This document shows positions 16,097 through 34,113 of a DNA stretch of 64,000 bases, piece by piece. Position 1 is the first letter of the stretch. Each line of letters opens with the position of its first letter. Position numbers and translations under genes: made by a program. The stretch is from Chitinophaga pinensis (GTDB lineage: Bacteria; Bacteroidota; Bacteroidia; 2-12-FULL-35-15), in assembly GCA_945879015.1 (NCBI GenBank), contig CAMCUO010000005.1:1306-65305 (forward strand), given 5' to 3'. The notes beneath the pieces were generated by a model. The model saw only the letters and a list, made by a program, of their open reading frames with translations. It was not told the origin of the DNA and ran no database searches.

Positions 16097-16268
16097 TTAA
16101 TAGCTCAGCCTATGTTTTAAGCATTCAATATACAAAGTAATACTTAGGAAAATCTAAAATAGACAAATTATCCCTCTGCTTTTTCAAGGAGAGGGAAGGC
16201 TGAGGTTTTAAAAGGGCTATTTTTGATTTTCACCTAGTATAAAAGTAACAATTATTCGTTTATTTGAG

Positions 16269-16276
16269 TATTTTTG
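16269..16276 (+). promoter_or_regulatory. Candidate Bacteroidota sigma-A -7 box (TAttTTTG) for the dlt-like operon.
   Basis: TATTTTTG sits 35 bp upstream of the ATG at 16311. It is preceded by the hairpin tccctct-N12-agaggga at 16171-16196. Confidence 0.25.
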
Positions 16277-16310
16277 AGATATTTGTATAGTATGGTAATG
16301 GGCATAAATT

Positions 16311-18854
16311 ATGAGGCTAATTGACAAATATTTTCCTTTAATTTCAGTTACTTCAGAAAATCGGGAGGCGCTTTTCAATATCGATAGGCTTCGTTTTTTT
16401 AGTCTGGCTTTAGCGCAATTTATTTTAATTCTTTTTATTGTTACTCGCTATAATTTTGAAAAGTCATCAGGAATAATCGATTATGCTCCTTATGTTATTC
16501 TAGTATTTGCAATTTATAGTTTTATTGCCATCCGTTTTCGTCCAGCATTTCTATTTCTTGCGTGTGTTGCACTTGTTTATGCAGCATTTGGAATTCTGGC
16601 TGGAAGTTTTTTTATTCTTATCGGATTAGGTTTGATTTTAATTTGTCACTTACCTATAAAATATACTTATCGCTTTGTATTAATATTAGCTATTGCATTT
16701 CTTCTAGCTCTTTTTAGGACAGAATTTATTTACATTCCATGGATGACTATGACTGCTATGTACATGGCTCCATTGTTTATGTTCCGACTCATTATTTATT
16801 TGTATGAAATAAAGAACGGAGTGGTACCTGCAAATAAATGGCAAAGTATCAGTTACTTTTTTATGTTTCCAAATGTGTTCTTTCTCTTCTTTCCAATTAT
16901 CGATTACAAAACCTATATCAAAACACACCTCGATTCACCTGAAAAAGAAATATGGCAAAAAGGAATTCGATGGATGCTGCGTGGATTGATTCACATCATG
17001 TGTTATCGTTTGATCTGTTTTCATTTTTTAATCGGACCAGTTGAAGTAATTGACCTTCCAACAATGTTGCAATACATGGTGGTTAATTATTCTTTGATTA
17101 TCAGACTTTCTGGTGTATTTCATTTTATGATTGGTCTGGTTTGTATGTTTGGATTCAATCTTCCTCAAATATTTGACAATTATTTTACTGCTACCAGCTT
17201 TGTTGATTTGTGGAGAAGAATAAATATTTATTGGAGAAATTTCGTTCTAAAAATATTTTTCTACCCAACAATGTTTAGGTATAAAAAAATTCTGAAAAAG
17301 AATTTGTTGGCTTTTACCATGATGACGGTTTTCTTTATAACCTGGATAATGCATAGTTATCAGTTGTTTTGGATAACAGGTGTAGTTTCTGTTAGATCCA
17401 TAGATGTTATTTTTTGGATGGTGATTGGTGCATGTATAACTACAAATTCGGTAATTGTTGAAAAATATACTTTAGCTGAAGACAGAGTAGAAAAGCCTCA
17501 ATCGGAGTTTAAAAAGTATTTCATGAAAATAATCCGAATGATGGGAATGTTTCTTTTCATGTCAATTATGTGGTCGTTATGGAATACACGTACATTGGAA
17601 GATTGGCTTTTTATTGTTTCAAAAGGAAAACAAGTTGATTCGAAACAGTTACTTCTTATTTTTTCGGTTGTAATTGGAATTATTGGTTTAGGAATTCTTG
17701 TTCAGATGATGTTGAAAAATGTTAAGTTAAAACAGCTTATTAATAGGAAACCGCACGAAACAATTTTATTGACTTTGTCTACACTTACACTTCTAACATT
17801 ATTTTCTTTCAAAGAAATTCGTTCTAATATACCTTTATCAGTGCAACATTTGTACGATCAAATTTCTGATGGTTCAGCTAACAAACTTGAGAAAACAAAT
17901 GCTGAAGCAGGTTATTACGATAAATTGATTGAAGGCGAAGAGGGCAATACAATTGGCATAGGAGGAAGGTCATTAAAAAAGATGGTGAAGAAAAATCCTT
18001 ATACCAATGCTTATATTTATCAAAACAATATTGTAAACCGAAGAATGAAACCCAATCTCAACATTGTTGGTTCGGATCATAATTTTCAAAGTAATAGTTT
18101 TGGAATAAGAGATAAAGAGTATTCTATAAAAAAACCTCTTGGAACAAAACGTTTAGCATTGCTTGGCGGCTCTTATCAAATGGGTTCTGGTGTAAATAAC
18201 AATGAAGTTTTTGAAGCCATTGCAGAAGAAAGAATGAACAAAGAGTTGGTGGATACAAATTATAAAGCTTTTGAAATTTTCAATTTTGCTGCTGGTGGTT
18301 ATTATTTGTTGCAGCATGTTGAAATAGTTCATACATCTGTATTTCAATACGACATGGATGCCTTGGTATATTTTGCGCATACTGATGAAAGAGGCAAAGT
18401 GGTAAAAGATTTTACTACTATTATCAAGAAAGAATTGCCATTGAAATACCCATTTCTTCAGCAAATTGTCAAAGAAAGCGGCATTAAATCTTATATGAGT
18501 ATTTTACAAATAAGAGAATTACTGACTCCATATGCCGATACAATTATGAAATGGGGTTATAAGGAAATATATGAGCAATGTAAAAAGAACAATGTGGTTC
18601 CTGTTTGGGCCTATATGGAAACTACTACTGAGTTTGTTGATGATGCAGAATATAATGAGCTAAAAGCATACGCTGAATCATTAGGTTTTGTAACTTTGGA
18701 TTTACGCAATACCTATGGCAATATTGATAGAGTTGAAATTCAGATTTCGGATTTAAATACTCACCCAAATGTATTAGGACATCGATTGATTGCTGAAAGG
18801 TTTTATAAAGAGTTGAAATTAAAAAGAGATAGTATTTTTAGAATTGTTGAATAA
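16311..18854 (+). CDS. Fused MBOAT (DltB/AlgI-like) membrane O-acyltransferase plus C-terminal DltD/SGNH-like extracytoplasmic domain.
   Basis: 847 aa. The N-terminal roughly 450 aa is polytopic, with the MBOAT motif LWRRINIYWRNF (the WRRWHIS analog; its His is replaced by Asn) and the invariant His in TWIMHSY. After two more TMs, a roughly 340 aa domain has GGSYQMGSG (block I-like) and DLNTHPNVLGHRLIAE (SGNH block V, DxxH). Confidence 0.75.
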   Translation: MRLIDKYFPLISVTSENREALFNIDRLRFFSLALAQFILILFIVTRYNFEKSSGIIDYAPYVILVFAIYSFIAIRFRPAFLFLACVALVYAAFGILAGSFFILIGLGLILICHLPIKYTYRFVLILAIAFLLALFRTEFIYIPWMTMTAMYMAPLFMFRLIIYLYEIKNGVVPANKWQSISYFFMFPNVFFLFFPIIDYKTYIKTHLDSPEKEIWQKGIRWMLRGLIHIMCYRLICFHFLIGPVEVIDLPTMLQYMVVNYSLIIRLSGVFHFMIGLVCMFGFNLPQIFDNYFTATSFVDLWRRINIYWRNFVLKIFFYPTMFRYKKILKKNLLAFTMMTVFFITWIMHSYQLFWITGVVSVRSIDVIFWMVIGACITTNSVIVEKYTLAEDRVEKPQSEFKKYFMKIIRMMGMFLFMSIMWSLWNTRTLEDWLFIVSKGKQVDSKQLLLIFSVVIGIIGLGILVQMMLKNVKLKQLINRKPHETILLTLSTLTLLTLFSFKEIRSNIPLSVQHLYDQISDGSANKLEKTNAEAGYYDKLIEGEEGNTIGIGGRSLKKMVKKNPYTNAYIYQNNIVNRRMKPNLNIVGSDHNFQSNSFGIRDKEYSIKKPLGTKRLALLGGSYQMGSGVNNNEVFEAIAEERMNKELVDTNYKAFEIFNFAAGGYYLLQHVEIVHTSVFQYDMDALVYFAHTDERGKVVKDFTTIIKKELPLKYPFLQQIVKESGIKSYMSILQIRELLTPYADTIMKWGYKEIYEQCKKNNVVPVWAYMETTTEFVDDAEYNELKAYAESLGFVTLDLRNTYGNIDRVEIQISDLNTHPNVLGHRLIAERFYKELKLKRDSIFRIVE

Positions 18855-18888
18855 TATATTTGTTTGTCAAACTTAAAATATAAAAAAC

Positions 18889-19152
18889 ATGCGTGCAGAC
18901 ATTAACGAAATAAAAGAAACAGTAAAGGCGTTCGTTAATAAACGTTTTTTAAAAAATGCTGAAGGGAAAGAATTAAACTATTCAACTCCTCTCATTTCTG
19001 GTGGTATTATTGATTCGATACTTGCTATGCAGTTGGTTGTTTTCCTAGAACAAACCTACAGGTTTGAATTTCAAGCACACGAAGTTGATAAAGATAATTT
19101 AGATAACATCGATATCATTGCAGGGTTTGTTGTAAAGAAGTTGAATGCATAA
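18889..19152 (+). CDS. D-alanyl-carrier-protein-like (DltC-like) small carrier protein.
   Basis: 87 aa. GGIIDSILAMQLVVFLEQ has the phosphopantetheine Ser in a DltC-like context. Its stop overlaps the next start (ATGCATAA). Confidence 0.75.
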   Translation: MRADINEIKETVKAFVNKRFLKNAEGKELNYSTPLISGGIIDSILAMQLVVFLEQTYRFEFQAHEVDKDNLDNIDIIAGFVVKKLNA

Positions 19153-20599
19153 GGTAAATAAGCTATATCAGCTTCTTGAAAATTCGGCAGAACAGTTTCC
19201 GGATAATACTGCTTTAGTTTTGCAAGAAAAAAAGATTAGCTATCAACAATTAGATTCATTAGCTAATAAAATAAAACAAGCTCTTCATTCTATAAACATT
19301 TCTGAAGGAAATCGTATCGCTATTTGCTCTCCTAAATCCATTGAATTTGTCGCCTCTATTTTCGGAATATTAAAAGCTGGTGCTGCTTATGTTCCTGTTG
19401 ATTATAATTCACCTATTGAACGCAATAATTTTATTATTGAAAATTGTGAAGTAGCTGCAATTATTATTACTAAAGACTTGTTAGAAAATTTTAAAAATAA
19501 TTTTACGTTTTTCGCAGATATTGGAATTGATTTAGTTTTAGCAAAAAGCAATAAGGTAACATTAAAAAAATCTTCTGAAGATTTATCCTATATTCTATAT
19601 ACTTCAGGCTCAACGGGAAATCCAAAGGGTGTAATTTATACCAATGCTGGAGCACTTGAATTTATCAATTGGAGTTCAAATACTTTTTCTCCCACTTCGA
19701 GTGATTGTTTTTCGTCGCATGCGCCTTTTCATTTCGATCTTTCTATTTTTGATTTATATGTTTCTATAAAGCATGGAGCAACTTTGGTTCTGATAAAAGA
19801 AGAAGTGGCGAAACAACCTATGCTATTGGCTCAATTAATTTCAGAACAAAAAATTAGTATTTGGTATTCTACTCCTTCAATTCTAATAATGCTTTCGGAA
19901 TATGGCAAAATGGAAAAGTATAAGTATGATAGTTTGAGATTGATATTATTTGCTGGTGAAGTTTTCCCAATTGTCAAATTAAATACATTAAAGAAAAAAG
20001 TTAAAACATCGGTTTTTTATAATCTTTATGGACCAACAGAAACAAATGTTTGTACGTATTATCAATTGCCTGAAAATATTGAAACAAATATTCCGATTGG
20101 AAAAGTATGCGAACATTATCAAGCCTGTGTTGTTGGTGATGAGCTTTTAATTAGCGGAAAAGGTGTGATGTTGGGTTATTGGAATGTTCCTGAAAAAGAT
20201 AATTTTTGGAAGGACCAAGAAAATAGATTTTGGTACAAAACGGGTGATTTGGTAGATGTTGCAGAGAGTGGAGATTATATCTTTAAAGGCAGAAGAGATA
20301 GAATGGTGAAGCGCAATGGTTATAGAATAGAATTGGATGAAATAGAAACAGGATTAAGTAAACATCCCGATATTGTTATTGCGGCTGTTGTCAGTAAGAA
20401 CAATGAAGAAGAGCAAATGATTATTTCTGCCTTTGTTGTTTTAAGAAATACTGAGCAAAAATCAGTCATAAAAATGAAGGAATATTGTATGAATCACTTA
20501 CCTTCGTATATGGTTCCCAACGACTTTATTTTTGTTGAGGATTTGCCACAAACATCAAGCAATAAAGTGGATTATCAGAAATTAAAACAATTAGCCTAA
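19145..20599 (+). CDS. Stand-alone adenylation enzyme (ANL superfamily), DltA-like aminoacyl-carrier-protein ligase.
   Basis: Motifs: YTSGSTGNPKGV (A3), FHFDLSIFDLY (A4; Asp rather than Glu after the pocket, as in DltA), YGPTE (A5), YKTGD (A7), GRRDRMVKRNGYRIELDEIE (A8), NKVD (A10). About 484 aa; no C or T domain. Confidence 0.8.
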   Translation: MHKVNKLYQLLENSAEQFPDNTALVLQEKKISYQQLDSLANKIKQALHSINISEGNRIAICSPKSIEFVASIFGILKAGAAYVPVDYNSPIERNNFIIENCEVAAIIITKDLLENFKNNFTFFADIGIDLVLAKSNKVTLKKSSEDLSYILYTSGSTGNPKGVIYTNAGALEFINWSSNTFSPTSSDCFSSHAPFHFDLSIFDLYVSIKHGATLVLIKEEVAKQPMLLAQLISEQKISIWYSTPSILIMLSEYGKMEKYKYDSLRLILFAGEVFPIVKLNTLKKKVKTSVFYNLYGPTETNVCTYYQLPENIETNIPIGKVCEHYQACVVGDELLISGKGVMLGYWNVPEKDNFWKDQENRFWYKTGDLVDVAESGDYIFKGRRDRMVKRNGYRIELDEIETGLSKHPDIVIAAVVSKNNEEEQMIISAFVVLRNTEQKSVIKMKEYCMNHLPSYMVPNDFIFVEDLPQTSSNKVDYQKLKQLA

Positions 20600-21747
20600 T
20601 GGAACTTTCCTTATCAACAGAGCAAATGCTTATCCAGGAAAACATTATTGGTTTTGCTCAAAAAGAATTGAATAATAATATTATTGAGCGCGATAAAAAC
20701 CAGCAGTTTTTACCTGAATTATGGAAAAAATGTGCGGAACAAAAACTTACTGGATTACCTGTTGAGGAAAAATTTGGTGGTGCTGGTTTAGATCCTATTT
20801 CTTCTGTTTTAGCATTGGAAGCATTGGGTTATGGCTCCGATGACGGTGGTTTGAATTTTTCTATATGTGCACATTTATTGGCTTGTGTTGTTCCTATCTG
20901 GAAATACGGAAACGAAAATCAAAAGAAAAAATACTTGCCTGATTTATGTAATGGAAAAAAAATTGCTGTAAATGCAATGACAGAAAGCGAATCGGGTTCG
21001 GATGTTTTTAATATTAAAACAACTGCTAAAAAGCAGGATAATGGATTTGTGATAAACGGAACAAAAACGTTTTGTTCAAATGGTCCAGTTGGAGATATAA
21101 TTTTAGTTTATGCGCTTACTGATGAAAGCAAAGGGTATTATGGTGGAATTACAGCTTTCATTGTAGATAAAAATGCAAAAGGATTTAAAGTCGGTCAGAA
21201 ATATGAGAAAATGGGTTTGCGCAGTTCGGGTATTTCTGAAGTAATATTTGAAAATGTTTTTGTTTCAGAAGAAGATATGGTTGGAGGATTTGGTGGTGGA
21301 GCAACGGTGTTTAATCATTCGATGGAGTGGGAGCGAACTGGTATGGCAGCTTTGCATGTTGGAACCATGCGCAAGTTGCTTGAAAAATCAATTGATTATG
21401 TTCAAACACGCAAATCAGGAAATGAAGTAATCGGTAAAAAACAAGCTATCGCTCATCGCATTGCAAATATGAAAGTTCAATTGGAAGCAGCTTCTTTGCT
21501 TACTTATAAAGCTGCATTAGGATTAGAAAAAAATAAAGAGAACATGATTCATGCAGCTTCAGCTAAACTTTTTGTGAGTGAAGCATTTGTTGCTGCTGCG
21601 ATTGATACCATGCAACTTTTTGGTGGAAATGGTTATATGACAGAATACGGTATTGAAAGAATTGTGCGAGATGCTCTTGGAAGTACTGTTTATTCTGGCA
21701 CATCCGATATTCAACGTAACATCATTTCTCGTTTGCTTGGATTGTAA
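20599..21747 (+). CDS. Acyl-CoA dehydrogenase-fold flavoprotein, atypical (candidate acyl-carrier-protein dehydrogenase).
   Basis: 382 aa ACAD fold. The C-terminal signature reads RDALGSTVYSGTSDIQRNIISR; the catalytic Glu of the canonical YEGT is replaced by Ser. Start overlaps the adenylase stop (TAATG). Confidence 0.8.
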   Translation: MELSLSTEQMLIQENIIGFAQKELNNNIIERDKNQQFLPELWKKCAEQKLTGLPVEEKFGGAGLDPISSVLALEALGYGSDDGGLNFSICAHLLACVVPIWKYGNENQKKKYLPDLCNGKKIAVNAMTESESGSDVFNIKTTAKKQDNGFVINGTKTFCSNGPVGDIILVYALTDESKGYYGGITAFIVDKNAKGFKVGQKYEKMGLRSSGISEVIFENVFVSEEDMVGGFGGGATVFNHSMEWERTGMAALHVGTMRKLLEKSIDYVQTRKSGNEVIGKKQAIAHRIANMKVQLEAASLLTYKAALGLEKNKENMIHAASAKLFVSEAFVAAAIDTMQLFGGNGYMTEYGIERIVRDALGSTVYSGTSDIQRNIISRLLGL

Positions 21748-21790: not shown

Positions 21791-23179
21791 ATGAAACTAT
21801 ACGATGTCATCATTATTGGCGGGGGGCCAACAGGTTCAACTGCTGCGACACTTTTAGCTCAAAAAGGGTTAAGTGTTTTGTTGTTAGAAAAAGAATCCTT
21901 CCCAAGAGAACATGTTGGTGAATCATTGATTCCGATTTCTTATGATCAATTGAATAAGTTGGGATTGGTTGAAGAAATGAAAAAAATTTCTAGTCGTAAA
22001 CCTGGAGTTAGTTTTGATGCAAATGATGGTGTGAACCGATCTTTATGGTGTTTTAAAAGTGTTATTAAAGATGAATCATATTTAGCTTTTCATGTTATCC
22101 GTTCGGCATTTGATAAGCTTTTGTTGGATAATAGTAAAAAAGTGGGAGCTGAAGTGAGAGAGCAATACATGGTGAAAAATGTAATTCTTGATAGAGCAGA
22201 TAAAATAGTAGAAGTGCATGCAACAAATGCAGAAGGCAAAGAAGAAAAATTTGAATCCAAATTTATTGTTGACGCAAGTGGACTAAGTACTTTTCTAGGA
22301 AGAAAATTGGGAGTTAAAAAAGCATATGCGGGTTTAGATAGAGTGGCTACTTGGTCGCACTGGACAAACACCGAATTTGATACAAATTTAAAAGAAGGCG
22401 TTATTAAAATTGTTTATTTGGGTGGAGAGAAAAAAGGATGGATATGGGTTATTCCTGTGAGCAAAGAGCATTTGAGCATTGGTGTGGTTGTGAATAACAG
22501 TCATGTGAAAGAAAAGAAAAAGCAATTTCAAGATTCAGAAGATTGGAAAAAAGATTATTATTTGCAGGAACTACAAGAATGTTATTTGTATAAAACGGTA
22601 TTGAAAAACGCTAAGATGGAGCATAAAGTTGCCATGGCTGGTGACTACTCTTATTACTGCGAAAAAAAGTATGGTGAAAATTATGCTTTAGTTGGAGATG
22701 CTGGTGCATTTTTAGATCCTATTTTTTCAAGCGGAATTTTTGTTGGAATGAAGAGTGCTGAATTGGTAGCGGATGGTATTGAAGCGAACCTGAAAGGAAA
22801 AGGGAATGCTGAAATGGACAAAGCTTATGTTAATATCAATGGTGCTGTCAACTTACTTGAAAAATTTATTCGCTTGTTTTATACTCCTGAAGCACTTGAT
22901 TTTTCTAAGATTGGAACTCCAGAAGGACTTTTAATGTTTAAAAAATACGAACAAACATATTCCGTTTTCCATTACTTATTAGCGGGTGATTTTTTCAATA
23001 ATTATGAAAAGTACAGTGAATTTATTGATACCATACGTGATGAGAAGACTATGGCCAAATTCGAAAATTTAATTGATCACGCGCACAGCGCCTTACCTAA
23101 AAGTTGCGGAGAAGATTTTGAAGAAATGTATGGTGAAATGACGCATAAAATTGAGTTTGATCATAAGGCGTTTGAGTAA
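21791..23179 (+). CDS. Flavin-dependent halogenase (PltA/PrnC-like clade).
   Basis: GxGxxG IIIGGGPTGSTAA; FPREHVGESLIP; WxWxIP as GWIWVIPV (22436-22459); FxxPxxSxG as FLDPIFSSGI. The ORF-track N-terminal extension from 21653 overlaps the ACAD gene and is rejected. Confidence 0.75.
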   Translation: MKLYDVIIIGGGPTGSTAATLLAQKGLSVLLLEKESFPREHVGESLIPISYDQLNKLGLVEEMKKISSRKPGVSFDANDGVNRSLWCFKSVIKDESYLAFHVIRSAFDKLLLDNSKKVGAEVREQYMVKNVILDRADKIVEVHATNAEGKEEKFESKFIVDASGLSTFLGRKLGVKKAYAGLDRVATWSHWTNTEFDTNLKEGVIKIVYLGGEKKGWIWVIPVSKEHLSIGVVVNNSHVKEKKKQFQDSEDWKKDYYLQELQECYLYKTVLKNAKMEHKVAMAGDYSYYCEKKYGENYALVGDAGAFLDPIFSSGIFVGMKSAELVADGIEANLKGKGNAEMDKAYVNINGAVNLLEKFIRLFYTPEALDFSKIGTPEGLLMFKKYEQTYSVFHYLLAGDFFNNYEKYSEFIDTIRDEKTMAKFENLIDHAHSALPKSCGEDFEEMYGEMTHKIEFDHKAFE

Positions 23180-23201
23180 ATAGCATTGTGCACCCATTCG
23201 T

Positions 23202-23325
23202 GAGAGATTGCCACATCCCGCGAAAATGCGGGACTCGCAATGACGCTCTGTTATGTGGTTATCGCTTTTAGAACGTCATTGCGAGGCACGACCCGAGCAT
23301 TCGGGGCGGGATGTGGCAATCTCTC
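23202..23325. repeat. About 125 bp composite palindromic element, same family as 7764-7893 but in R-spacer-L order.
   Basis: gagagattgccacatcccgcgaaaatgcgggactcgcaatgacgctct, then a 23 bp spacer, then acgtcattgcgaggcacgacccgagcattcggggcgggatgtggcaatctctc. Confidence 0.7.
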
Positions 23326-23349
23326 CAATATTGCGAAGACCAGTCACCC

Positions 23350-24063
23350 TCAAAAAAACCAAGCACTAACATTCATCACAATCTTCCTTCCCCAAGAAGG
23401 AACATGTTTTAAAAAATAAAAATTCTGAAATTTTAATTGCCACCAAAGTGTTGCATTTACTTTAGCACAAATTTGTTTTTTGTCATTTTCAAATTCTTCA
23501 CGTAAAATATCAATAATCAAAATCCACCGTTCATTTTCTGTTTTGTTCCATACTTCATGTTCGTATGCATCACAGAAGGCAAAGAGTTTTCCATTTTTCC
23601 ATGAAATTTGCTCATTTCCAACTCTCATTCCAATTTCCGGTAAGCTATTTTTGCAGTTTAAAGTAAAGTGACATCGATACATCACATTGCTATCACCATG
23701 ATGTGGTTTTATGGAAGTATTTGCATTTAAAATGGAAAACGAAGCATGTGTCATTGCTGGAATGCTTTCGATTATTCTTGTCGTCTCCGGACATTTTTCA
23801 CAATTTTCTTTTTTCTTTTTGCTCCAAACATACAATGGAAAAATAGTCCAGTTCTCTGCTTTGCTGGCAAGTGATTTATTCATGTAAGGAATAATATTTT
23901 TATCCTTTGATTCAACAAGTTTGGTGAATTCTTTTAAAATTAAATCGTAATTGTCTTCAAAAAGAGCCACCCATTTTTTGTCATGGATATCAAAAAAATT
24001 AGGCTCTGGGCCTTTGTAAGCGCTATTCTCTGCAAACGAATACCATTTCTTTGAATTTCCCAT
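23350..24063 (-). CDS. Aspartyl/asparaginyl beta-hydroxylase-family 2OG/Fe(II) oxygenase, paralog 1.
   Basis: 237 aa. HHGDSNVMYRCHFTL, WKNGKLFAFCDAYEHEVWN, ILIIDI; matches the AspH core (H..R.H..L / FDDSFEHE.WN). Confidence 0.65.
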   Translation of the reverse strand: MGNSKKWYSFAENSAYKGPEPNFFDIHDKKWVALFEDNYDLILKEFTKLVESKDKNIIPYMNKSLASKAENWTIFPLYVWSKKKKENCEKCPETTRIIESIPAMTHASFSILNANTSIKPHHGDSNVMYRCHFTLNCKNSLPEIGMRVGNEQISWKNGKLFAFCDAYEHEVWNKTENERWILIIDILREEFENDKKQICAKVNATLWWQLKFQNFYFLKHVPSWGRKIVMNVSAWFF

Positions 24064-24806
24064 TAGTAAACTTTAAATAGATTAACACTTACTATAGCCA
24101 GTCGTGTAAATGGATGTAAACATTTTGCTAAAAACTTAATTGTTCTAGCAGATAATTTTTTAAGAAAAGTATATTTCTGCCATCTCTTTTGTAAAAAAAG
24201 CGAAGTCATTACTGTTGCGCAAATTTTTTCTTTTTCATTTTTAAATTCATCACGCACAACATCCACCACAAAAATAAAACGATCTTTCTCCGAATTATTA
24301 TACGCTTCATGTTGATAGGCATCCATAAACATCAACCATTTCCCATTTTTCCATGGACGAACTTCCTCTTTAACTTTAAAGGCACATTCTGGAAGTCCAG
24401 CCGGAATTTCCAGTCCTAAATGACATCTATAAATAGTATTTGTATCTCCGCAATGTGGATGAATTTTACTTTTTGCTTCTAATAAATTAAAAGAGGAAGA
24501 AGTAATTTCTGGATATTTTTGAATAATGGAATAAGTTATTGGAAAATATTTCTGATTTTTAAACTGTTGAATTCCCCATGTTCTCAGTGGAATTGTTTTC
24601 CAGCTATTTTCACGCGAAACCATTGATTTTATAAAATAACCAATGAGGTTGTCGCTTTTAAGATATTCTTTGAGTTCTTTATAAATGGCTTCGTAATTTT
24701 CTTCAAACTCTTTTGTCCAGCGAAATTCTTCTGGTTTAGTAAAAGGAGCTTCCGTTCCATGATATTCGTCATTTACGTTATATATGTTGTACCAAGCCTT
24801 TTGCAT
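24063..24806 (-). CDS. Aspartyl/asparaginyl beta-hydroxylase-family oxygenase, paralog 2.
   Basis: 247 aa. HPHCGDTNTIYRCHLGL, WKNGKWLMFMDAYQHEAYN, FIFVVDV. Its stop overlaps paralog 1's start. Confidence 0.65.
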   Translation of the reverse strand: MQKAWYNIYNVNDEYHGTEAPFTKPEEFRWTKEFEENYEAIYKELKEYLKSDNLIGYFIKSMVSRENSWKTIPLRTWGIQQFKNQKYFPITYSIIQKYPEITSSSFNLLEAKSKIHPHCGDTNTIYRCHLGLEIPAGLPECAFKVKEEVRPWKNGKWLMFMDAYQHEAYNNSEKDRFIFVVDVVRDEFKNEKEKICATVMTSLFLQKRWQKYTFLKKLSARTIKFLAKCLHPFTRLAIVSVNLFKVY

Positions 24807-24850
24807 CCACTCTTTATTTATTATATTTGTTTTAGTAAAAACTCTAGCAA

Positions 24851-25537
24851 ATGTCTGAATTCGAATTTACAAATAAAAATCCTAAGTTCTTTTATGATTC
24901 TGCTCAGTTTCCTTTTTTGAAGCCATTGCTTGATAATGTTGGGGTTATTCGAAAAGAGTTGCAAGATATTATTGCTTCAGGAAAGGAAAATCAATGGATG
25001 AATACGTTTCCACATTATGTAAAATCTGACGAGCACAAAGCTTGGAAGGTATTTTCATTTTTGTTCTTTAATATGAAGCTTCCCAACAACGCAAAATTAT
25101 GTCCGAAAACGGCTGAACTCATTTATTCTATTACAGAGATTCTTTCTTGTGATTATTCTTATATGAATCCAGGAACTCATGTGCTGCCTCACAAAGGTTA
25201 TTCACGAATGGTTTTACGTTGTCACATTGCTTTGATTGTTCCAGATGAGGAACTTTGTGCTTTACGTGTTGGAAATGAAATTAAACATTGGAAAGAAGGC
25301 GAACTTATAATTTTTGATGATTCATTTGAACATGAAGCATGGAATAGATCCGACAAAAGAAGAGTTGTTTTAATGTTTGATATTCCAAATCCCCTTTGGG
25401 GATATACTGCTCATGAAATTTCAAAATATAAAATTGATAAAATTGATGATCCTTTTCTTTTATCGATGGCTCCCAAAGATGAATGGATAAAAGCGTTTGA
25501 AAAAGGAATTTTTCCTTTGGAGAGTTTTAAAGATTAA
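24851..25537 (+). CDS. Aspartyl/asparaginyl beta-hydroxylase-family oxygenase, paralog 3 (most canonical).
   Basis: 228 aa. LPHKGYSRMVLRCHIALIVP, WKEGELIIFDDSFEHEAWNRSDKRRVVLMFDI. Near-textbook AspH C-terminal core. Confidence 0.7.
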   Translation: MSEFEFTNKNPKFFYDSAQFPFLKPLLDNVGVIRKELQDIIASGKENQWMNTFPHYVKSDEHKAWKVFSFLFFNMKLPNNAKLCPKTAELIYSITEILSCDYSYMNPGTHVLPHKGYSRMVLRCHIALIVPDEELCALRVGNEIKHWKEGELIIFDDSFEHEAWNRSDKRRVVLMFDIPNPLWGYTAHEISKYKIDKIDDPFLLSMAPKDEWIKAFEKGIFPLESFKD

Positions 25538-25602
25538 ATTTTGGTTGAGAATTGTTATATAGTCAATTGATTAAAGGTATTCTCAGCTTAAATGGTTCTG
25601 AC

Positions 25603-26526
25603 TTATTTCTTCTTCACAAAAACTTTCTTCACCAAACCAACCGCTTTCTCAACAACTAAACCTACAATAATTCCAGCAAGGACACAGGATAGTGCTTTTA
25701 TAAACCAGGCCAAAGCAGACATGTTAGCCAAAGTGTGTTCGAGATCGTGAATTAAATTGGCAGAAAATTCAAAGCCGTGAGCAATGATTTCTGCACCCAC
25801 CCAAAGCATGGCTGCGGTACCCACATAACTCAAAATTTTTAGGAAATGCGGCATGAACCTGACAAGACCAAGTCCGAATTTTTGCAGGACAGGATGAAAT
25901 TTATCCTTGGCTAAGTGAAGTCCTATGTCGTCTGCTTTAACAATCAATCCAACAAATCCGTAGACTGCAATAGTAATAAAAACACCAACAGCCAGCATCA
26001 CCAAAATCTGCTTCATCATTGGCTGGTCGGTGACATAACTATAAGCAATGGCAATAATTTCTGCGGAGAGAATAATGTCAGTGCGAACCGCACCTGTAAT
26101 CCTTTCTTTTTCCAATTCATCTGGCGTGATGACTTTTACTTCATCCATTGTTAGAGGCAGATCAGGATGTTTGCTAAACATTGAATGCAACTTTTCGTAC
26201 CCTTCGAAACATAAATAAGCTCCACCTAACATTAAAATTGGTGTGATTGCCCAAGGAGCTAAGTACCCGAGCAACAAAGCTGCAGGAGTTAAAATAAGAA
26301 GTTTATTTATGAGAGATCGTTTGGCAATCCTGTAAATGATAGTTAGTTCACGTGATGGATCGAGTCCAACAACGTACTTTGGCGTAACGGCTGTATCGTC
26401 AATGACAATGCCCGAAACCTTCCCGCTAGTTTTGATTACCTGTGCAGGTACATCACTCAAGTTGGCTGCAGTTGTTTTTACTAAAGCTGAAATATCATCT
26501 AAAAGTGCAAAAAAACCCGAAGCCAT
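25603..26526 (-). CDS. DUF808 (YedI-like) inner-membrane protein.
   Basis: MASGFFALLDDISALVKTTAA and PWAITPILMLGGAYLCFEGYEKL match the E. coli YedI family. Confidence 0.7.
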   Translation of the reverse strand: MASGFFALLDDISALVKTTAANLSDVPAQVIKTSGKVSGIVIDDTAVTPKYVVGLDPSRELTIIYRIAKRSLINKLLILTPAALLLGYLAPWAITPILMLGGAYLCFEGYEKLHSMFSKHPDLPLTMDEVKVITPDELEKERITGAVRTDIILSAEIIAIAYSYVTDQPMMKQILVMLAVGVFITIAVYGFVGLIVKADDIGLHLAKDKFHPVLQKFGLGLVRFMPHFLKILSYVGTAAMLWVGAEIIAHGFEFSANLIHDLEHTLANMSALAWFIKALSCVLAGIIVGLVVEKAVGLVKKVFVKKK

Positions 26527-26584
26527 ATGCTATAATTTTGCTAATGTGTACATATTGAAATCGATGCAGGTGATTTTTTTCGAT

Positions 26585-27196
26585 TTAGAGCAAAGCATTT
26601 ATCGCCTCCATATTCTCATCACAAACTTCACCGCTAAATTTTAATTCCGCATTTTGATCGCTCAAAATTGCAGCAGCTTTATTTAGTTTTGCACCAATTG
26701 TTTTGTAGTCATCCACGTGCAATTCGTATAATTGATTGTCCACATGCTCTTGATCTGACAGTAATTTGTAGCCAAGTAACTTGTTGTAATGAATGGCTCT
26801 ATCATTGTCGCTCAATATTCTGATACGAGAAATTTTGCTGACATTTAATTTTAAAAACATAAAATTCAAAAGACACAATGTTGCAAAAACGGCTGCAAAG
26901 GAGCTGATGTAGTCTTTGTCACTAATAAAAATTCCTCCTTCGCCAAATCCTAAGCCTACATCATAATTTTTTGCATTGATGAGTCCAACTTGTTTGCCTT
27001 CAAATTCAATAATAAAATAATAATTGTTTCTGTTGTTTACGGATTTGAACCAAATTTTTTGAGCTTCAGGTGTAATGAAATTACGGTATTCCATGTAATT
27101 AGCAATATCACTTTGGTTTCTCCAATTACGAACCATCTCAATATCTTTTTCTTGCACTCTTACAAGCCGAACGCCATATTGTTCAAGAACTAACAT
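26585..27196 (-). CDS. GNAT-family N-acyltransferase (RimJ/RimL-like).
   Basis: 203 aa. Lies at the 3' end of the KASIII operon; its start overlaps the GT2 stop. Confidence 0.55.
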   Translation of the reverse strand: MLVLEQYGVRLVRVQEKDIEMVRNWRNQSDIANYMEYRNFITPEAQKIWFKSVNNRNNYYFIIEFEGKQVGLINAKNYDVGLGFGEGGIFISDKDYISSFAAVFATLCLLNFMFLKLNVSKISRIRILSDNDRAIHYNKLLGYKLLSDQEHVDNQLYELHVDDYKTIGAKLNKAAAILSDQNAELKFSGEVCDENMEAINALL

Positions 27197-28107
27197 ATGA
27201 TTTCGTCTTCGTTATAGGAAGGCGCATTGTTCAAAGCTTTTAACATCTGACTTATATATTGTGCGACAATTCCAATGCAGAAAATAATTATACCTGTAGA
27301 AAAAAGAATACTTACAATCAAAGAAGTATAACCTTCCACATCAATTTTTAAGTAAAACTTTTTAATGATGTAAAAAATTCCAATAATGAAATTGATAGTA
27401 GCTAAACTAAATCCAATATAGGTTACCAATTTTAATGGTAGAGTAGATGAAAACATGATGATGGTAGAAGTCATCTTAAACAATCCTGCTACTTTGTAAC
27501 GTTGCTTATGTATGTAATCAGGATTTGCATTTACATCTACAAAGGCTAATTTTTTTGTGTACCATAAACACAATTCATCAATAAAAACAAATTGTTTGTG
27601 ATTGTGTACCAACTTATCAGTCAGTGATTTTTTTAATAATCTAAAACTGCTTCCTTTTCCTTTTTGTGGGCCTTCCAGCTTTGCTAGTATTTTATATGCT
27701 CCAGAAAAAATTCCTCTAAAAAAAGGTTGATTTTGTTTTGGATACAATCCATAAACCAGATCAGCATTTGTATTTTTTTGATTATCGATTAGCTTTTGAA
27801 TTTCTGAAGGGTGAACTTCTAAATCATCATCAATGGTAATAACAAAATCTCCTTTCGCATGTTTGAAGCCACAAACAGTAGCTCCGTGCTGACCGAAATT
27901 TTTACTTAAGCGAATAATGGTTGTGTTGGATGAACTTGCTTTTATTTTTTTTAATACTTCCCAGCTATTGTCGGTACTACAATCATCCACAAAAATAATT
28001 TCGTAGGAATATTTGTTTTCAAAAAATGAAACAATGCTTTGGTGCACCTTCTCAAGTGCATTTTCAGAACCATAAACTGGAATAACTATGCTATAGTTTG
28101 TGCTCAT
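27190..28107 (-). CDS. Family-2 glycosyltransferase, polyprenyl-phosphate sugar synthase type (ArnC/GtrB/DPM1-like).
   Basis: SIVIPVYGSENALEKV...YEIIFVDDCSTDNS (DxD). Two C-terminal TM helices; about 305 aa, the ArnC architecture. Confidence 0.75.
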   Translation of the reverse strand: MSTNYSIVIPVYGSENALEKVHQSIVSFFENKYSYEIIFVDDCSTDNSWEVLKKIKASSSNTTIIRLSKNFGQHGATVCGFKHAKGDFVITIDDDLEVHPSEIQKLIDNQKNTNADLVYGLYPKQNQPFFRGIFSGAYKILAKLEGPQKGKGSSFRLLKKSLTDKLVHNHKQFVFIDELCLWYTKKLAFVDVNANPDYIHKQRYKVAGLFKMTSTIIMFSSTLPLKLVTYIGFSLATINFIIGIFYIIKKFYLKIDVEGYTSLIVSILFSTGIIIFCIGIVAQYISQMLKALNNAPSYNEDEIIC

Positions 28108-28847
28108 ATTTTACTATTTAAAAGTAATCCACCATCCATTTTTATAACTGTTCCAGTAATTCTTTTTGATGCGGCACTTAATAAAAACGCAGCAGTATTT
28201 GCAACATCAATTGGTTCACTTATTCCAAGTGGGTAACGACTTTCAATTTCTGCAAATTCTTCTTTTGAATAAATTTGCTCTGCTTGTTCCAAAATTTTTG
28301 TCCGAACCAGACCAGGAGCAATGGTGTTTACTCGTATTTTTTTAGAAGCTGTTTCCAAAGCCAATCCTAAAGCAAAAGACTCTAATGCAGCTTTTGATGC
28401 AGTATAAAGCGAACCTCCCGTGTATGGATGATTTGCAGAAATGGATGAAATGAAAACAACTGATGCTTCGTTATTTAATTTTTTTGCAGATAATAATCCA
28501 CTACTCAGCAATACAGCCGATGAAAAATTTATTTTAAAAAGTTCATCAATGTGTCTTGATTTTAAAAACTTTATTGGAAGTGGATTGATAATTCCAGCAC
28601 AATGAACGAAACCATCAATAGCAGGTATTTTAGAAATCAAATAATTAATTTCCTCTTCGTTTGACAAATCAGCAATAAAAAAGCCTGCTTTATTTTTTAA
28701 TAATGCTTTTGTTTTATTTAATTCATCAGCATTGCGACCAGTGATAATGATATTAGCACCCAAAGAATCACACAATTGCGCAGTTGCTCTTCCTATTCCA
28801 GAAGTAGCACCAGTCACCAAAATTGTTTTATTCTCAAGCTCTGTCAT
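28104..28847 (-). CDS. SDR-family 3-oxoacyl-ACP reductase (FabG-like).
   Basis: TGATSGIGRATA Rossmann motif; YTASKAAL catalytic YxxxK. Confidence 0.8.
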   Translation of the reverse strand: MTELENKTILVTGATSGIGRATAQLCDSLGANIIITGRNADELNKTKALLKNKAGFFIADLSNEEEINYLISKIPAIDGFVHCAGIINPLPIKFLKSRHIDELFKINFSSAVLLSSGLLSAKKLNNEASVVFISSISANHPYTGGSLYTASKAALESFALGLALETASKKIRVNTIAPGLVRTKILEQAEQIYSKEEFAEIESRYPLGISEPIDVANTAAFLLSAASKRITGTVIKMDGGLLLNSKI

Positions 28848-29892
28848 ATTCTAAAAGTTTTGTATAAACATTTTCGGTTTCTAAAATAACACTTCCCCAG
28901 GAATATCCAACTCCGAAACCACTCAATAACAAAGATAATTTTTTTGTTCGTAATGCTTCTTTCATTTTGTAGCACATGGTTAATGGAATAGAAGCGGAGC
29001 TAGTGTTCCCAAAAACATCTATAGAATAAGGCACTTTTTCAAGATCTATTTTTAATTTTTTTCTCACACTTTCGTTGATGAGCTTGTTGGCTTGATGCAT
29101 AACGAAGTAATCTGTATTCTCTTTTGATTTATTACTTTTTTCATAAAGTGTAGTAATATTTGAAGCCGCTTCTTTCAATGCAAAATTAAAAACATCCATT
29201 CCATTTAAAATCAAATGCTTTTTTGCTCTACTAATTCCTGGTTCAATTTCTACTAAATCTTCCAATGTTTTATCAAACGGTGTTCTGCAACTTCCATGTT
29301 CAATTATGATTGCATTTTTTCCGGAGCCATCGCTTTGTAAATTAAAATGCATTTCATTTTTAGTTTGTGAATGCTCTATCAATGTTGCGGTTCCTGCATC
29401 TCCAAAAAGTGGATAAGTGCTTTTATCGGTATATGTTGTAGATGTAGATGACTTATCTCCAACTATCAATAAGCCTTTTTTTAATTGTCCGCTTTGCATT
29501 AAGTTGGTGATTACCGACAATCCATAAACATATCCAGAACAACCTAAGCTGATATCAAATGCGATACAATCTTTTTTTAATCCTAAACGGTTTTGTAATA
29601 AAATGGAAGTCGCTGGTAAAATATAATCGGGTGACTGAGAAACAAAAATCAGGACATCAATTTCTTCAGCACAATTATATTTATCTAATAAATGTTTAGC
29701 TGCTGTAAAACATAAATCGGAGCAAGCAACATCTTTAGCGGCAACTCTTCTTTCTTTTATTCCAGTAGTTTTTGCAAATAATTCTCTTTCCTCAACTGAA
29801 ATATGATTGTAATCGGCAGTTTTTTCTATGTGAGTTGGCACACAGCTGGAGATTGCAATAATATTCGTTTTAGTAGTAGATAGATAGGCCAC
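28834..29892 (-). CDS. 3-oxoacyl-ACP synthase III (FabH-like), copy A.
   Basis: Cys-His-Asn triad: SLGCSGYVYGL, MHQANKLI, FGNTSSASIP. Confidence 0.8.
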   Translation of the reverse strand: MAYLSTTKTNIIAISSCVPTHIEKTADYNHISVEERELFAKTTGIKERRVAAKDVACSDLCFTAAKHLLDKYNCAEEIDVLIFVSQSPDYILPATSILLQNRLGLKKDCIAFDISLGCSGYVYGLSVITNLMQSGQLKKGLLIVGDKSSTSTTYTDKSTYPLFGDAGTATLIEHSQTKNEMHFNLQSDGSGKNAIIIEHGSCRTPFDKTLEDLVEIEPGISRAKKHLILNGMDVFNFALKEAASNITTLYEKSNKSKENTDYFVMHQANKLINESVRKKLKIDLEKVPYSIDVFGNTSSASIPLTMCYKMKEALRTKKLSLLLSGFGVGYSWGSVILETENVYTKLLEYDRA

Positions 29893-30129
29893 TTATTTTA
29901 ATTTTTCGATAGTAATATTATAAAGATCTTGGATTGTTTGTGCCGATTTTAAATCAGCGCCATTTAATAATGCATTAAAATTCGCATCAATGTATGCAAT
30001 GATAATTAAGGCATGCATACTGCTCCAACCTTTTATACTTCTAAAGTTTGTAGCGGAGCTAAGAGTCCCAGGTTCTAAATCTTCAAATTCAACTTCTAAA
30101 CCTTTCGTAAATTCTTCTATGCTATTCAT
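29893..30129 (-). CDS. Acyl carrier protein (dedicated).
   Basis: 78 aa acidic. KGWSSMHALIII has the Ser attachment site. Sits between the two KASIII genes. Confidence 0.6.
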   Translation of the reverse strand: MNSIEEFTKGLEVEFEDLEPGTLSSATNFRSIKGWSSMHALIIIAYIDANFNALLNGADLKSAQTIQDLYNITIEKLK

Positions 30130-30165: not shown

Positions 30166-31179
30166 CTATAGCTCAATAATGGTTGCACCCCAAGACAAAC
30201 CGACTCCAAATCCTGCGAGTAATATTTTTTGTCCTGGTTTTGCTTTTCCTGATTTAATGGCTTCACTTAATGTAATGGGGATGCTTGCAGCAACTGTGTT
30301 TCCAACACCTGCCATGTAATTAAAAACTTTTTCCTCCGGAATTTTCATTTTTGTTCGTATGGAATTAATCAAAAATAAATTCGCTTGATGAAAAATAAAA
30401 AGATCAACGTCTTCGATATTTAATTTTTCTTTCGCCAATAAATCTTTAATCATTGCTGGAACAGTTTTTAATCCAAAATGAAAAACTCCAGCACCGTCCA
30501 TGTGTAAATTAGCATCGGTAGTCACATTTCCGTGTTCATTTTCTATTTCAATAAAAGAATTTTTTGAAATTGGATTTCTTGCACCACCATCTCTGATGAT
30601 AATTTTTTCTGCCATTTTTCCATCTGTTCCAAAAACGAATGAACTAATGTTAGCATTTTTTTTACCAGACGAAATGAGCGTTGCAGCTGCACCATCACCA
30701 AAAACAAATTTTGAACTTCTATCTTTTTTATGAATATTTTTTGTGAGTGTTGAAGAAGTAATTAGCAAAACATTTTTCAATCCCAAAGACTCAATCATTC
30801 CTTTTGCCATCCCTAATCCATATACAAATCCGCTACAACCTAAACTGTAATCCATTGCTCCAGCATTTATTGGAAGCCCTAATTTTGCTTGTATGATAGA
30901 GGCAGAGGCAGGAAACATGTAATCAAACTCCAAAGCACAAAAAAGTAAAAAATCAATTTCTTCAGGTTTAACTTTGTGTTCTTTGAAAAGTGCTAATGCT
31001 GCTTTAACAGCAAGATCAGAAGCTGTTTCATTTTTAGCTACTATATGCCTTTCAACAACTCCAATTCTTGCATAGTTTTCTTTTTGAGAAACAGTTGCAG
31101 GAAAAGCTTTGAAAAAATCTGTATTACTATAGATTTTTTCGGGAAGATAATAACTGATAGCTTTTATGAATGCCGACAT
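30166..31179 (-). CDS. 3-oxoacyl-ACP synthase III (FabH-like), copy B.
   Basis: SLGCSGFVYGL, FIFHQANLFL, AGVGNTVAASIP. Confidence 0.8.
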   Translation of the reverse strand: MSAFIKAISYYLPEKIYSNTDFFKAFPATVSQKENYARIGVVERHIVAKNETASDLAVKAALALFKEHKVKPEEIDFLLFCALEFDYMFPASASIIQAKLGLPINAGAMDYSLGCSGFVYGLGMAKGMIESLGLKNVLLITSSTLTKNIHKKDRSSKFVFGDGAAATLISSGKKNANISSFVFGTDGKMAEKIIIRDGGARNPISKNSFIEIENEHGNVTTDANLHMDGAGVFHFGLKTVPAMIKDLLAKEKLNIEDVDLFIFHQANLFLINSIRTKMKIPEEKVFNYMAGVGNTVAASIPITLSEAIKSGKAKPGQKILLAGFGVGLSWGATIIEL

Positions 31180-33639: not shown

Positions 33640-34041
33640 ATGCCTACAATATCACAATTAGTGCGTAAAGGGAGATTAAAAGCAGTTAACAAAAGTAAGT
33701 CTGCAGCTCTTGATTCTTGTCCACAAAAACGTGGGGTTTGTACTCGTGTTTACACGACTACTCCAAAGAAACCGAATTCAGCTATGAGAAAAGTAGCTCG
33801 TGTGCGTTTAACCAACAAAAAAGAGGTGAATGCATACATCCCGGGAGAAGGTCATAACCTGCAAGAACACTCAATTGTGTTGATTCGTGGTGGAAGAGTT
33901 AAAGATTTACCAGGAGTTCGTTATCACATCGTTCGTGGTGCTTTAGATACTTCAGGAGTTGATGGTCGTAACCAAAGACGTTCAAAATACGGAACAAAGA
34001 AACCAAAAGCAGGAGCTGCTAAACCAGCTGCTAAAAAATAA
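33640..34041 (+). CDS. rpsL: 30S ribosomal protein S12.
   Basis: [12 protein letters not shown]... Confidence 0.95.
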
Positions 34042-34113
34042 TTAAAAATCGAGTGAGGATTTGAGTAAGGAAAAACCTGAAGCAACAAATTTAAGCTCTA
34101 AAAAAAACAAACA

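Follow-up and report, generated by a model that had tools for sequence, protein, structure and literature searches.

AspH-family oxygenase paralogs in a Bacteroidota gene cluster as possible tailoring hydroxylases of a lipid-linked, N-acylated amino sugar

To our knowledge, the only characterised bacterial members of the AspH-like Fe(II)/2-oxoglutarate (2OG) oxygenases are the 2-hydroxylases of lipid A and of ornithine lipids. A 2026 review (PMC12971839) places OlsC, OlsD and LpxO in a single Fe/2OG family and gives C2 of an acyl chain as the site that each of them hydroxylates. The Asp/Asn beta-carbon modified by AspH can be regarded as likewise lying alpha to a side-chain carbonyl. Because OlsC, OlsD, LpxO and AspH all act next to a carbonyl, hydroxylation at such a position is the default expectation for new members. 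For neighbourhoods of beta-hydroxylase and sulfotransferase genes, a reaction order 'hydroxylate, then sulfate' has been predicted (Iyer, Aravind et al. 2010, PMC2938197), and beyond this general prediction we found nothing specific in the literature on bacterial contexts of the family (PF05118) or on the cluster described here. A related gene order is found in the O-antigen genes wfpC-D-E-F-G of Flavobacterium psychrophilum, predicted to make a 3,5-dihydroxyhexanoyl chain on an acyl carrier protein (ACP) that is loaded on UDP-Qui2NAc4N (Cisar et al. 2019, PMC6519341). In this study, we analysed a 64-kb stretch of Chitinophaga pinensis DNA (contig CAMCUO010000005.1, ~33% GC; called the window below), which contains three neighbouring genes for AspH-like proteins, H1, H2 and H3. 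We propose, with confidence evenly balanced for and against, that H1-H3 are Fe(II)/2OG hydroxylases of the AspH/LpxO/OlsC family, soluble or peripheral and competent for catalysis, and that they would act as regiospecific tailoring hydroxylases of one pathway for a lipid-linked N-(hydroxyacyl) amino sugar, the new OH groups being later sulfated, carbamoylated or acylated. The three genes are:

23350-24063, minus strand: H1, AspH-family 2OG/Fe(II) hydroxylase (237 amino acids, aa; PF05118, 146.5 bits)
24063-24806, minus strand: H2, AspH-family hydroxylase (247 aa; PF05118, 135.8 bits)
24851-25537, plus strand: H3, core AspH-family hydroxylase (228 aa; PF05118, 148.4 bits)

All three proteins matched PF05118 (Asp_Arg_Hydrox) over the whole profile (positions 1-157; E 1e-39 to 1e-43), with 136-148 bits against a gathering cut-off of 22.6 bits, and this was the only Pfam domain found in each of the 228-247 aa hydroxylases. 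The P-H-x-G, R-C-H and W-K-x-G motifs are invariant in a three-way alignment. The core motifs and the C-terminal boxes (FCDAYEHEVWN in H1, FMDAYQHEAYN in H2 and FDDSFEHEAWN in H3) are all present as a preliminary description of this DNA had quoted them, and the measured lengths agree with the ~230-250 aa given there. Using phmmer, we aligned H3 with the catalytic domain of human AspH (E 9e-24), which paired S103 with S668, H114 with H679, G116 with G681, R123 with R688, H125 with H690, H161 with H725 and R171 with R735; the AspH numbering was confirmed by the PDB entry titles 'H679A', 'H725A', 'R688Q' and 'R735Q'. The equivalents of AspH H679, G681, R688, H690, H725 and R735 are invariant in 10 H1, 17 H2 and 23 H3 orthologs. 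The position of S668 is occupied by Ser in H1 and H3 and by Asn in 15 of the 17 H2 orthologs.

AlphaFold (AF2) models were made from ortholog alignments for H1 and H3. The H3 model (predicted local distance difference test, pLDDT, 91.8) had AspH as its top PDB match in Foldseek, with an E-value of 1e-16, a root-mean-square deviation (rmsd) of 1.5-1.9 A and a template modelling (TM) score of 0.69-0.81. For the H1 model (pLDDT 91.0), the top match was human AspH 5apa (E 4e-16, TM score 0.65-0.78). The nearest non-AspH structural neighbours of the models were two proline hydroxylases, which fitted poorly (TM score ~0.5). With AspH (5apa, 5jqy, 6yyu), the proteins share the double-stranded beta-helix core (rmsd 1.5-2.4 A over ~180-190 columns, 24-30% identity), the unusual two-His iron site (H-x-G ... 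H) without a carboxylate, and the Arg/His/Arg set that binds 2OG. Hence, the earlier assignment to the AspH-family 2OG/Fe(II) oxygenases holds by profile, by the fold of the H1 and H3 models and by Fe/2OG residues invariant in 50 orthologs; we looked for a better match to a non-oxygenase family and for a missing metal-ligand His, and found neither. AspH carries a TPR domain joined to its oxygenase domain, is anchored in the endoplasmic reticulum membrane and acts on EGF domains, none of which applies to H1-H3; the only TPR repeats are in a distinct membrane protein, encoded at 31280-33304. H1-H3 are bacterial, cytoplasmic proteins with C-terminal helices of their own, and their gene neighbourhood suggests a small molecule or a lipid-linked compound as the substrate.

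The nearest curated bacterial models are those of the OlsC/OlsD/LpxO group, which uses the same cofactors and hydroxylates acyl chains alpha to the carbonyl, the chemistry that we propose here too. However, H1-H3 scored 104, 110.6 and 132.6 bits with NCBIfam OlsC (NF052565) and 55.5, 65.8 and 98.4 bits with LpxO (NF033391), far under the equivalog cut-offs of 450 and 500 bits, and by these scores they are relatives, not members, of the OlsC and LpxO functional families. In further contrast to this group, their genes are not beside lipid A or ornithine-lipid genes, and they form a nested set of 1-4 paralogs that co-varies with sulfotransferase and MBOAT-type genes. The inner-membrane transmembrane helices typical of LpxO are also absent: the highest Kyte-Doolittle averages over 19-residue windows were 0.71-1.23 in H1-H3, compared with 2.3-2.8 in adjoining membrane proteins and a threshold of 1.6, in line with the earlier view of H1-H3 as soluble proteins, unlike membrane-anchored LpxO. 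No signal peptide was found in H1-H3. Basic, aromatic-rich amphipathic helices end H1 and H2, though not H3; the tail of H2 is amphipathic and basic (hydrophobic moment 0.64) and that of H1 basic and aromatic-rich. Such tails would suit work on a membrane-bound intermediate.

H1 shares 38% identity with H2 and 29% with H3, and these low values identify H1-H3 as old paralogs and not recent copies. Orthologs were collected by a scan of GTDB species genomes, protein searches, context look-ups and one metagenome scan, giving ~60 usable loci (numbered with L or P below), all from uncultured Bacteroidota. The GTDB scan contributed five syntenic loci (L001-L005), all in Bacteroidota metagenome-assembled genomes (MAGs). 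We obtained ~100 H1 orthologs with at least 48% identity, each of them from a Bacteroidota metagenome, and 906 H3 homologs at E<=1e-5, every close one of which came from a metagenome or a Bacteroidota/Bacteroidia MAG. H1, H2 and H3 form three orthogroups that persist down to ~40% identity, with H1 and H2 as sisters; a fourth AspH-like copy in L008 groups as H2-like. Two positions beside the metal site are invariant within each group and differ between groups: the residue after HxG is Tyr/Phe in H3 and Asp in both H1 and H2, and at position 156, H3 has Asp, H1 has Cys and H2 has Met/Thr. The subfunctionalisation suggested earlier from the C-terminal boxes thus finds its counterpart in separate orthogroups, each with its own invariant residues near the metal, and these residues fit the addition of OH groups at different positions by H3, H2 and H1. 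The distribution is nested: H3 forms the core, H2 and then H1 are added layers, and H1 is present only in larger versions of the cluster.

The gene order is less simple than the three tandem paralogs downstream of a halogenase operon that had been described. The three genes are adjacent, but they are not arranged head to tail. H2 and H1 are both on the minus strand and are probably translationally coupled, since the stop of H2 overlaps the start of H1 by 1 nt, whereas H3 diverges from H2 across 44 bp. Nor do they follow the halogenase operon in the direction of transcription, as H1 and the halogenase gene are convergent and separated by 170 bp.

The constant partners of the hydroxylases lie on the H3 side:

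25603-26526, minus strand: DUF808 membrane protein (PF05661)
26585-27196, minus strand: GNAT N-acyltransferase (PF13302; NCBIfam PseH 51 bits, under the cut-off)
27190-28107, minus strand: GT2, polyprenyl-phosphate glycosyltransferase type, GtrB/ArnC-like (PF00535)
28104-28847, minus strand: FabG-like 3-ketoacyl reductase (SDR)
28834-29892, minus strand: ketoacyl-ACP synthase III (KASIII, FabH-like) number 2
29893-30129, minus strand: ACP-like open reading frame of 78 aa between the KASIII genes (by position, size and analogy to wfpD)
30166-31179, minus strand: KASIII (FabH-like) number 1
31280-33304, plus strand: polytopic membrane protein with C-terminal TPR (~10 transmembrane segments in residues 38-440; TPR in residues 507-640)

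H3 is nearly always tail-to-tail with the GNAT and GT2 genes and usually beside the KASIII-ACP-KASIII-ketoreductase genes. A GNAT gene is present at 54 of 56 loci with an H3 ortholog; in 52 it is convergent with H3, the 3' ends overlapping by 4-47 bp. The window is the odd one out, with the DUF808 gene inserted between H3 and GNAT; this gene is absent from that place in L001-L005 and all other loci and is probably not part of the pathway. Minimal units consist of H3-GNAT-GT2 (L038) or H3-GNAT-GT2-SDR-KAS-ACP-KAS (L051), with unrelated genes around both. Compared by gene order, the set agrees with wfpC-G in its succession of ketoacyl-ACP synthase, ACP, ketoacyl-ACP synthase, ketoacyl-ACP reductase and N-acyltransferase. 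It differs in that the acyltransferase is of the GNAT and not the PglD type, and in the addition of a GtrB/ArnC-type GT2, AspH-like hydroxylases, sulfotransferases and an MBOAT protein. The GNAT protein gave weak PDB matches to SpeG and to the sugar N-acyltransferase FdhC. The 78-aa reading frame matched no Pfam or NCBIfam model, a gene of 76-93 aa is kept at the same position in all larger loci, and its assignment as a dedicated acyl carrier protein follows from position, size and the analogy to wfpD.

The GT2 and TPR proteins recall the three-component systems of a GtrB/ArnC-type glycosyltransferase, a flippase and a GT-C enzyme such as ArnT or GtrC. GT2 matched NCBIfam ArnC and PgfS with ~118 bits and, over its full length, GtrB 5ekp (120 bits) and ArnC in the PDB, including the C-terminal transmembrane hairpin (segments within residues 227-292). 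The conserved polytopic protein next to the core has a 'MDDEF' motif after its first transmembrane segment, its ortholog in L094 (31% identity, E 5e-65) has a weak match to PMT_2, a GT-C domain, and at the P0095 locus a PMT_2 protein stands in its place. It is a candidate TMTC/PMT-like GT-C glycosyltransferase that may complete a GtrB-type three-component system. Unlike in those systems, no flippase was recognised in the cluster, and the sugar would carry a hydroxylated, sulfated acyl group. Taken together, the wfp-like order, the weak PseH/FdhC-like character of the GNAT, the GtrB/ArnC-type GT2 and the GT-C-like TPR protein make a lipid-linked N-(hydroxyacyl) amino sugar the most economical model of the product.

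On the other side of H1 lie the halogenase operon, the MBOAT-type gene and the sulfotransferase genes:

13872-14999, plus strand: sulfotransferase 1 of the 3'-phosphoadenosine-5'-phosphosulfate (PAPS) type (PF13469, 97 bits)
15053-16096, minus strand: PAPS-type sulfotransferase 2 (PF13469, 112 bits)
16311-18854, plus strand: membrane protein of 847 aa with a divergent MBOAT N-terminal half (by profile-profile comparison)
18889-19152, plus strand: carrier protein of 87 aa (NCBIfam ACP_for_OlsHI 75 bits, cut-off 130; weak DltC match)
19145-20599, plus strand: stand-alone adenylating enzyme (best stand-alone PDB matches 6o6e, 273 bits, and 7thn; DltA 199 bits)
20599-21747, plus strand: acyl-CoA dehydrogenase (ACAD) resembling prolyl-carrier-protein dehydrogenases (PDB 4irn, prolyl-ACP dehydrogenase, 322 bits; 5zw0, L-prolyl-PCP dehydrogenase)
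21794-23179, plus strand: FADH2-dependent halogenase (PF04820; PDB matches CndH, Mpy16, CmlS, Bmp2 and PltA)

The adenylating enzyme is closest to L-proline--carrier-protein ligases of the PltF/PigI type, which rank above DltA, and the ACAD to the prolyl-carrier-protein dehydrogenases AnaB and PigA. By homology, the halogenase operon is a classical cassette that converts proline to a (halo)pyrrole-2-carboxyl-S-carrier; we know of no proline-to-pyrrole cassette described from this Bacteroidota clade. The 847-aa protein had no match in Pfam, NCBIfam or the PDB by sequence. A profile of its orthologs matched the stand-alone MBOATs of sister clusters (hhalign probability 95.4%, E 1.9e-8), and its His348 falls at the position of the catalytic His of the MBOATs. 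GGSY..G and NTHPN motifs make the C-terminal half reminiscent of SGNH/DltD-like proteins. A plain fusion of an MBOAT with the 300-aa partner protein was considered and rejected, the C-terminal half giving an hhalign probability of 1.7% and no PDB profile match. The 'dlt-like' label of the preliminary description is thus reasonable for the N-terminal MBOAT half and unsupported for the C-terminal half. The halopyrrole cassette comes with the long MBOAT fusion, and clusters that lack the cassette have a 470-aa MBOAT and a 290-310-aa partner. This pairing suggests a Dlt-like export of the halopyrrole-2-carboxyl group. In L001, the closest relative of the window (87-94% protein identity), the carrier protein, adenylase, dehydrogenase, halogenase and three hydroxylases are kept, and two genes for proteins with a type IX secretion system (T9SS) tail (15949-20708) replace the MBOAT fusion and both sulfotransferases, either through recent loss or relocation or as a MAG assembly artefact.

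Across the loci, each hydroxylase layer has its own companions. Sulfotransferase genes accompany H2 at 23 of 24 loci that have H2, compared with 1 of 13 loci with H3 only, and an MBOAT-type gene accompanies H1 at 12 of 13 loci, compared with 2-3 of 24 loci without H1. In L008, four AspH-like genes and a Cupin_8 oxygenase gene occur together with four sulfotransferases and an MBOAT, and halopyrrole genes are absent. Some relatives have a carbamoyltransferase in place of a sulfotransferase, and in L094 the CysD/N/C genes for PAPS synthesis are beside the cluster. A strict rule by which the number of hydroxylases equals that of sulfotransferases, carbamoyltransferases and MBOATs together held in the first six architectures and was abandoned after it failed in L012, L093 and L001; the matching of hydroxylases to caps is a statistical tendency.

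The preliminary description had tied the triplet to carrier-protein halogenation. Synteny of triplet and halogenase operon is indeed seen in the window and in the five GTDB representatives, but the operon is facultative. Hydroxylases occur without it in L008, L010, L031, the P0095 locus, L022-L030, L094 and all H3-only loci, and it occurs with just two hydroxylases in L012 and L061. The constant partners are instead GNAT, GT2 and the KASIII-ACP-KASIII-ketoreductase set. Successive hydroxylation of the same product, also suggested before, is still the best reading, although the product would come from the H3 side and not from the prolyl/pyrrolyl carrier protein. In L093 (6433-9990 and 15304-20678), a truncated adenylase (375 aa), a carrier protein and an ACAD occur without a halogenase. 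The locus also has a GT1, four sulfotransferases that fall into three Pfam types and, at its edge, an 852-aa unannotated protein. As this locus mixes a partial cassette, H3 alone and sulfotransferases, the accessory modules appear to recombine freely.

From these data we infer a substrate, the hydroxylated positions and an order of five steps, of which steps 1-2 and 4-5 follow from homology and gene order and step 3 from family chemistry and co-occurrence. In step 1, the KASIII-ACP-KASIII-ketoreductase set would produce a short hydroxyacyl-ACP, for which the 3,5-dihydroxyhexanoyl chain of wfpC-D-E-F is the model. In step 2, the GNAT would transfer the acyl group to an amine, most likely of a nucleotide-linked amino sugar, and the GtrB/ArnC-type GT2 would then place the sugar on polyprenyl phosphate. 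In step 3, H3 and then H2 and H1 would each hydroxylate a different C-H, with the carbon alpha to the carbonyl as the preferred site; through their basic amphipathic tails, H1 and H2 would stay at the membrane and act there on the lipid-linked form. In step 4, the new OH groups would be capped in the cytoplasm by the PAPS sulfotransferases, or in some relatives by the carbamoyltransferase. In step 5, after flipping, the 847-aa MBOAT-type enzyme would O-acylate the intermediate, in the window with the proline-derived halopyrrole-2-carboxyl group from the 87-aa carrier protein, and the TPR/GT-C protein would finally pass the decorated sugar to a surface acceptor. The sequence resembles the neighbourhoods of Iyer et al. 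(PMC2938197), in which a 2OG dioxygenase makes an OH group that a linked sulfotransferase sulfates and which include PhyH-methyltransferase fusions and collagen-like/tail-collar proteins as proposed substrates. Unlike there, the partners here are fatty-acid-synthase-like, GNAT and GT2 genes.

Several points weigh against this pathway. We recognised no amino-sugar aminotransferase or dehydratase and no flippase inside the cluster, and the likeness of the GNAT to sugar N-acyltransferases is weak (PseH 51 bits, under the cut-off; FdhC E 0.002). The proposed sugar, amine acceptor and chain length are deductions, and a hexanoyl chain would offer only three free carbons, too few for the five oxygenases of L008. 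Among the loci that break the match between hydroxylases and caps, L012 has two hydroxylases, at least three sulfotransferases and an MBOAT fusion, L093 has H3 only but four sulfotransferases, and L001 has the triplet and no sulfotransferase or MBOAT gene in range. The association counts given above are not corrected for shared ancestry.

Three other substrates have to be weighed against the lipid-linked sugar. H1-H3 could be OlsC/OlsD/LpxO-type acyl 2-hydroxylases of membrane lipids (ornithine or amino lipids, lipid A) that lie beside the cluster by chance or through shared regulation. OlsC (104-133 bits) and LpxO (55-98 bits) are the best NCBIfam models, several orthologs carry the JGI label 'ornithine lipid ester-linked acyl 2-hydroxylase', the ornithine-lipid 2-hydroxylase of Flavobacterium is still unidentified (PMC12971839), and a membrane surface would suit the basic amphipathic ends of H1 and H2. 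The scores are, however, 3- to 9-fold under the 450/500-bit cut-offs, and the proteins lack the transmembrane helices of LpxO. OlsB, OlsF or Lpx genes were seen in no locus, and within the annotated stretches of the window and the loci we noticed no gene for ornithine-lipid synthesis (olsBA, olsF or olsHI). Such a role would also leave unexplained the tie of H3 to GNAT-GT2 at 54 of 56 loci, with overlapping convergent ends, and the layered co-variation of H3, H2 and H1 with sulfotransferases and MBOAT, the latter being unexpected of housekeeping lipid hydroxylases, and we consider it unlikely. A second family of substrates, proteins, is suggested by AspH itself, the closest solved structure: H1-H3 could hydroxylate Asp/Asn or other residues of a secreted or T9SS-exported target that is then sulfated and glycosylated, as Iyer et al. 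predicted for protein hydroxylation followed by sulfation (PMC2938197). AspH holds its substrate by a TPR domain and a conserved TPR protein adjoins the cluster; giant T9SS cargo genes (with PKD/Ig/CHU_C domains) and small signal-peptide proteins flank many loci. Yet the TPR region follows a polytopic membrane domain and an ortholog matches PMT_2, both of which suggest a GT-C enzyme of the periplasm rather than an adaptor in the cytoplasm. Since the hydroxylases have no signal peptide, their action would need to precede export. No homology links the small flanking proteins of different loci, and no such protein partner is found at minimal H3-GNAT-GT2 loci. We regard a protein substrate as quite unlikely, a shade more so than a membrane lipid.

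The halogenase operon itself could supply the substrate, H1-H3 hydroxylating either the prolyl/halopyrrolyl unit bound to the carrier protein or the product of the operon. This would account for the adjacency to the halogenase gene in the window and the five GTDB species representatives, and the two nearest non-AspH structural neighbours, despite their poor fit (TM score ~0.5), are proline hydroxylases. The gene distribution contradicts it: many loci have 1-4 hydroxylases and no adenylase, dehydrogenase or halogenase, and the cassette also occurs with two hydroxylases only (L012). In addition, H1 and H2 are convergent with the operon and not co-transcribed with it, and an aromatic pyrrole has no sp3 C-H for this chemistry. 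We therefore judge hydroxylation on the carrier protein to be very improbable. Tailoring of the lipid-linked amino sugar remains the reading that we prefer.

Two intergenic regions next to the hydroxylase genes have features of their own:

24807-24850, no strand: AT-rich divergent H2/H3 intergenic region, 44 bp (a gap of ~43 bp is also present in L001-L005)
23202-23325, no strand: nested GC-rich palindrome in the halogenase/H1 gap (inverted repeats of 20 nt, 100% match, and, inside, 21 nt, 86% match)

TAnnTTTG is the published Bacteroidota -7 promoter consensus. In the H2/H3 region, TATATTTG at 24822-24829 matches it by eye, 22 nt before the H3 ATG, and this box is a candidate promoter element of H3. 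A scan of 23000-26700 for sigma-70-type promoters and terminators gave counts close to the shuffled expectation; that consensus is inapplicable to Bacteroidota, and the result was not used. The 16-mer GATTGCCACATCCCGC of the palindrome is found again at 7799-7865, where an inverted pair of copies lies in the gap that separates dnaN from a T9SS esterase gene, so that it occurs four times in the window against 0.26 expected. The palindrome looks like a member of a REP/MITE-like family of intergenic elements (repetitive extragenic palindromic sequences or miniature inverted-repeat transposable elements) and possibly acts as a bidirectional terminator.

The wider surroundings of the cluster are variable between relatives. 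Small signal-peptide proteins of 123-136 aa, often with Lys-rich C-termini, are encoded beside it in the window (13441-13851), L006 (3369-3755) and L011 (3383-3769), and further ones in L012 (17524-17934) and L010 (11711-12082). A common small secreted substrate protein was considered and rejected, as the flanking signal-peptide proteins of 123-186 aa are not mutually homologous, except in L006/L011. Giant PKD/Ig/CHU_C genes for T9SS-exported proteins adjoin the cluster in relatives, not in the window (L008 16331-20768, L010 12132-17141, L012 17982-20687, L051 15686-18277, L095 17961-20684 and L094 17471-20699). By analogy to TPR-bearing GT-C enzymes that glycosylate repeat-domain adhesins, these giant proteins could be acceptors of the modification. 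In the window, 33640-52814 resembles a ribosomal-protein (str/S10/spc) region by gene sizes and order, and dnaN and a UvrD-type helicase gene lie on the other side of the cluster. With these flanks, the cluster appears to be part of the conserved chromosomal core and not an obvious mobile element.

Taken to its full extent, the model implies a new substrate class for the AspH family, which we put forward tentatively and with the balance of probability against it. Here, 1-4 paralogs would successively hydroxylate a short N-acyl chain of the 3,5-dihydroxyhexanoyl type on a polyprenyl-phosphate-linked amino sugar. The resulting polyol side chain, a 'pseudo-aldonic acid', would then receive sulfate groups at several positions or carbamoyl groups; once it is flipped, a Dlt-like MBOAT would attach a halogenated pyrrole-2-carboxylate through an ester bond. 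For the minimal loci, with just H3-GNAT-GT2, the hydroxylation might amount to no more than the conversion of an N-acetyl to an N-glycolyl group. A halopyrrole cluster with Dlt-like MBOAT delivery to a sulfated lipid-linked sugar would be more unusual than the hydroxylases themselves.

The membership of H1-H3 in the superfamily is known ground, and the new elements are the substrate class and the modular 'hydroxylate, then cap' design that the context implies. A polyprenyl-phosphate sugar link, together with the co-variation with sulfotransferases, carbamoyltransferases and MBOAT, would add the tailoring of glycoconjugates to the roles of the family, and 'hydroxylate, then cap' offers a testable rule for reading such clusters. 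The paralog-specific residues beside the iron site constitute a natural experiment on how regioselectivity evolves in two-His 2OG oxygenases. With ~900 H3 homologs, the cluster has a wide distribution among uncultured Bacteroidota of freshwater, soil and marine origin, and its product could be a major surface structure of these organisms. If the model is true, it would be an undescribed, modularly evolving and strongly anionic surface decoration of Bacteroidota, possibly carried on giant T9SS adhesins.

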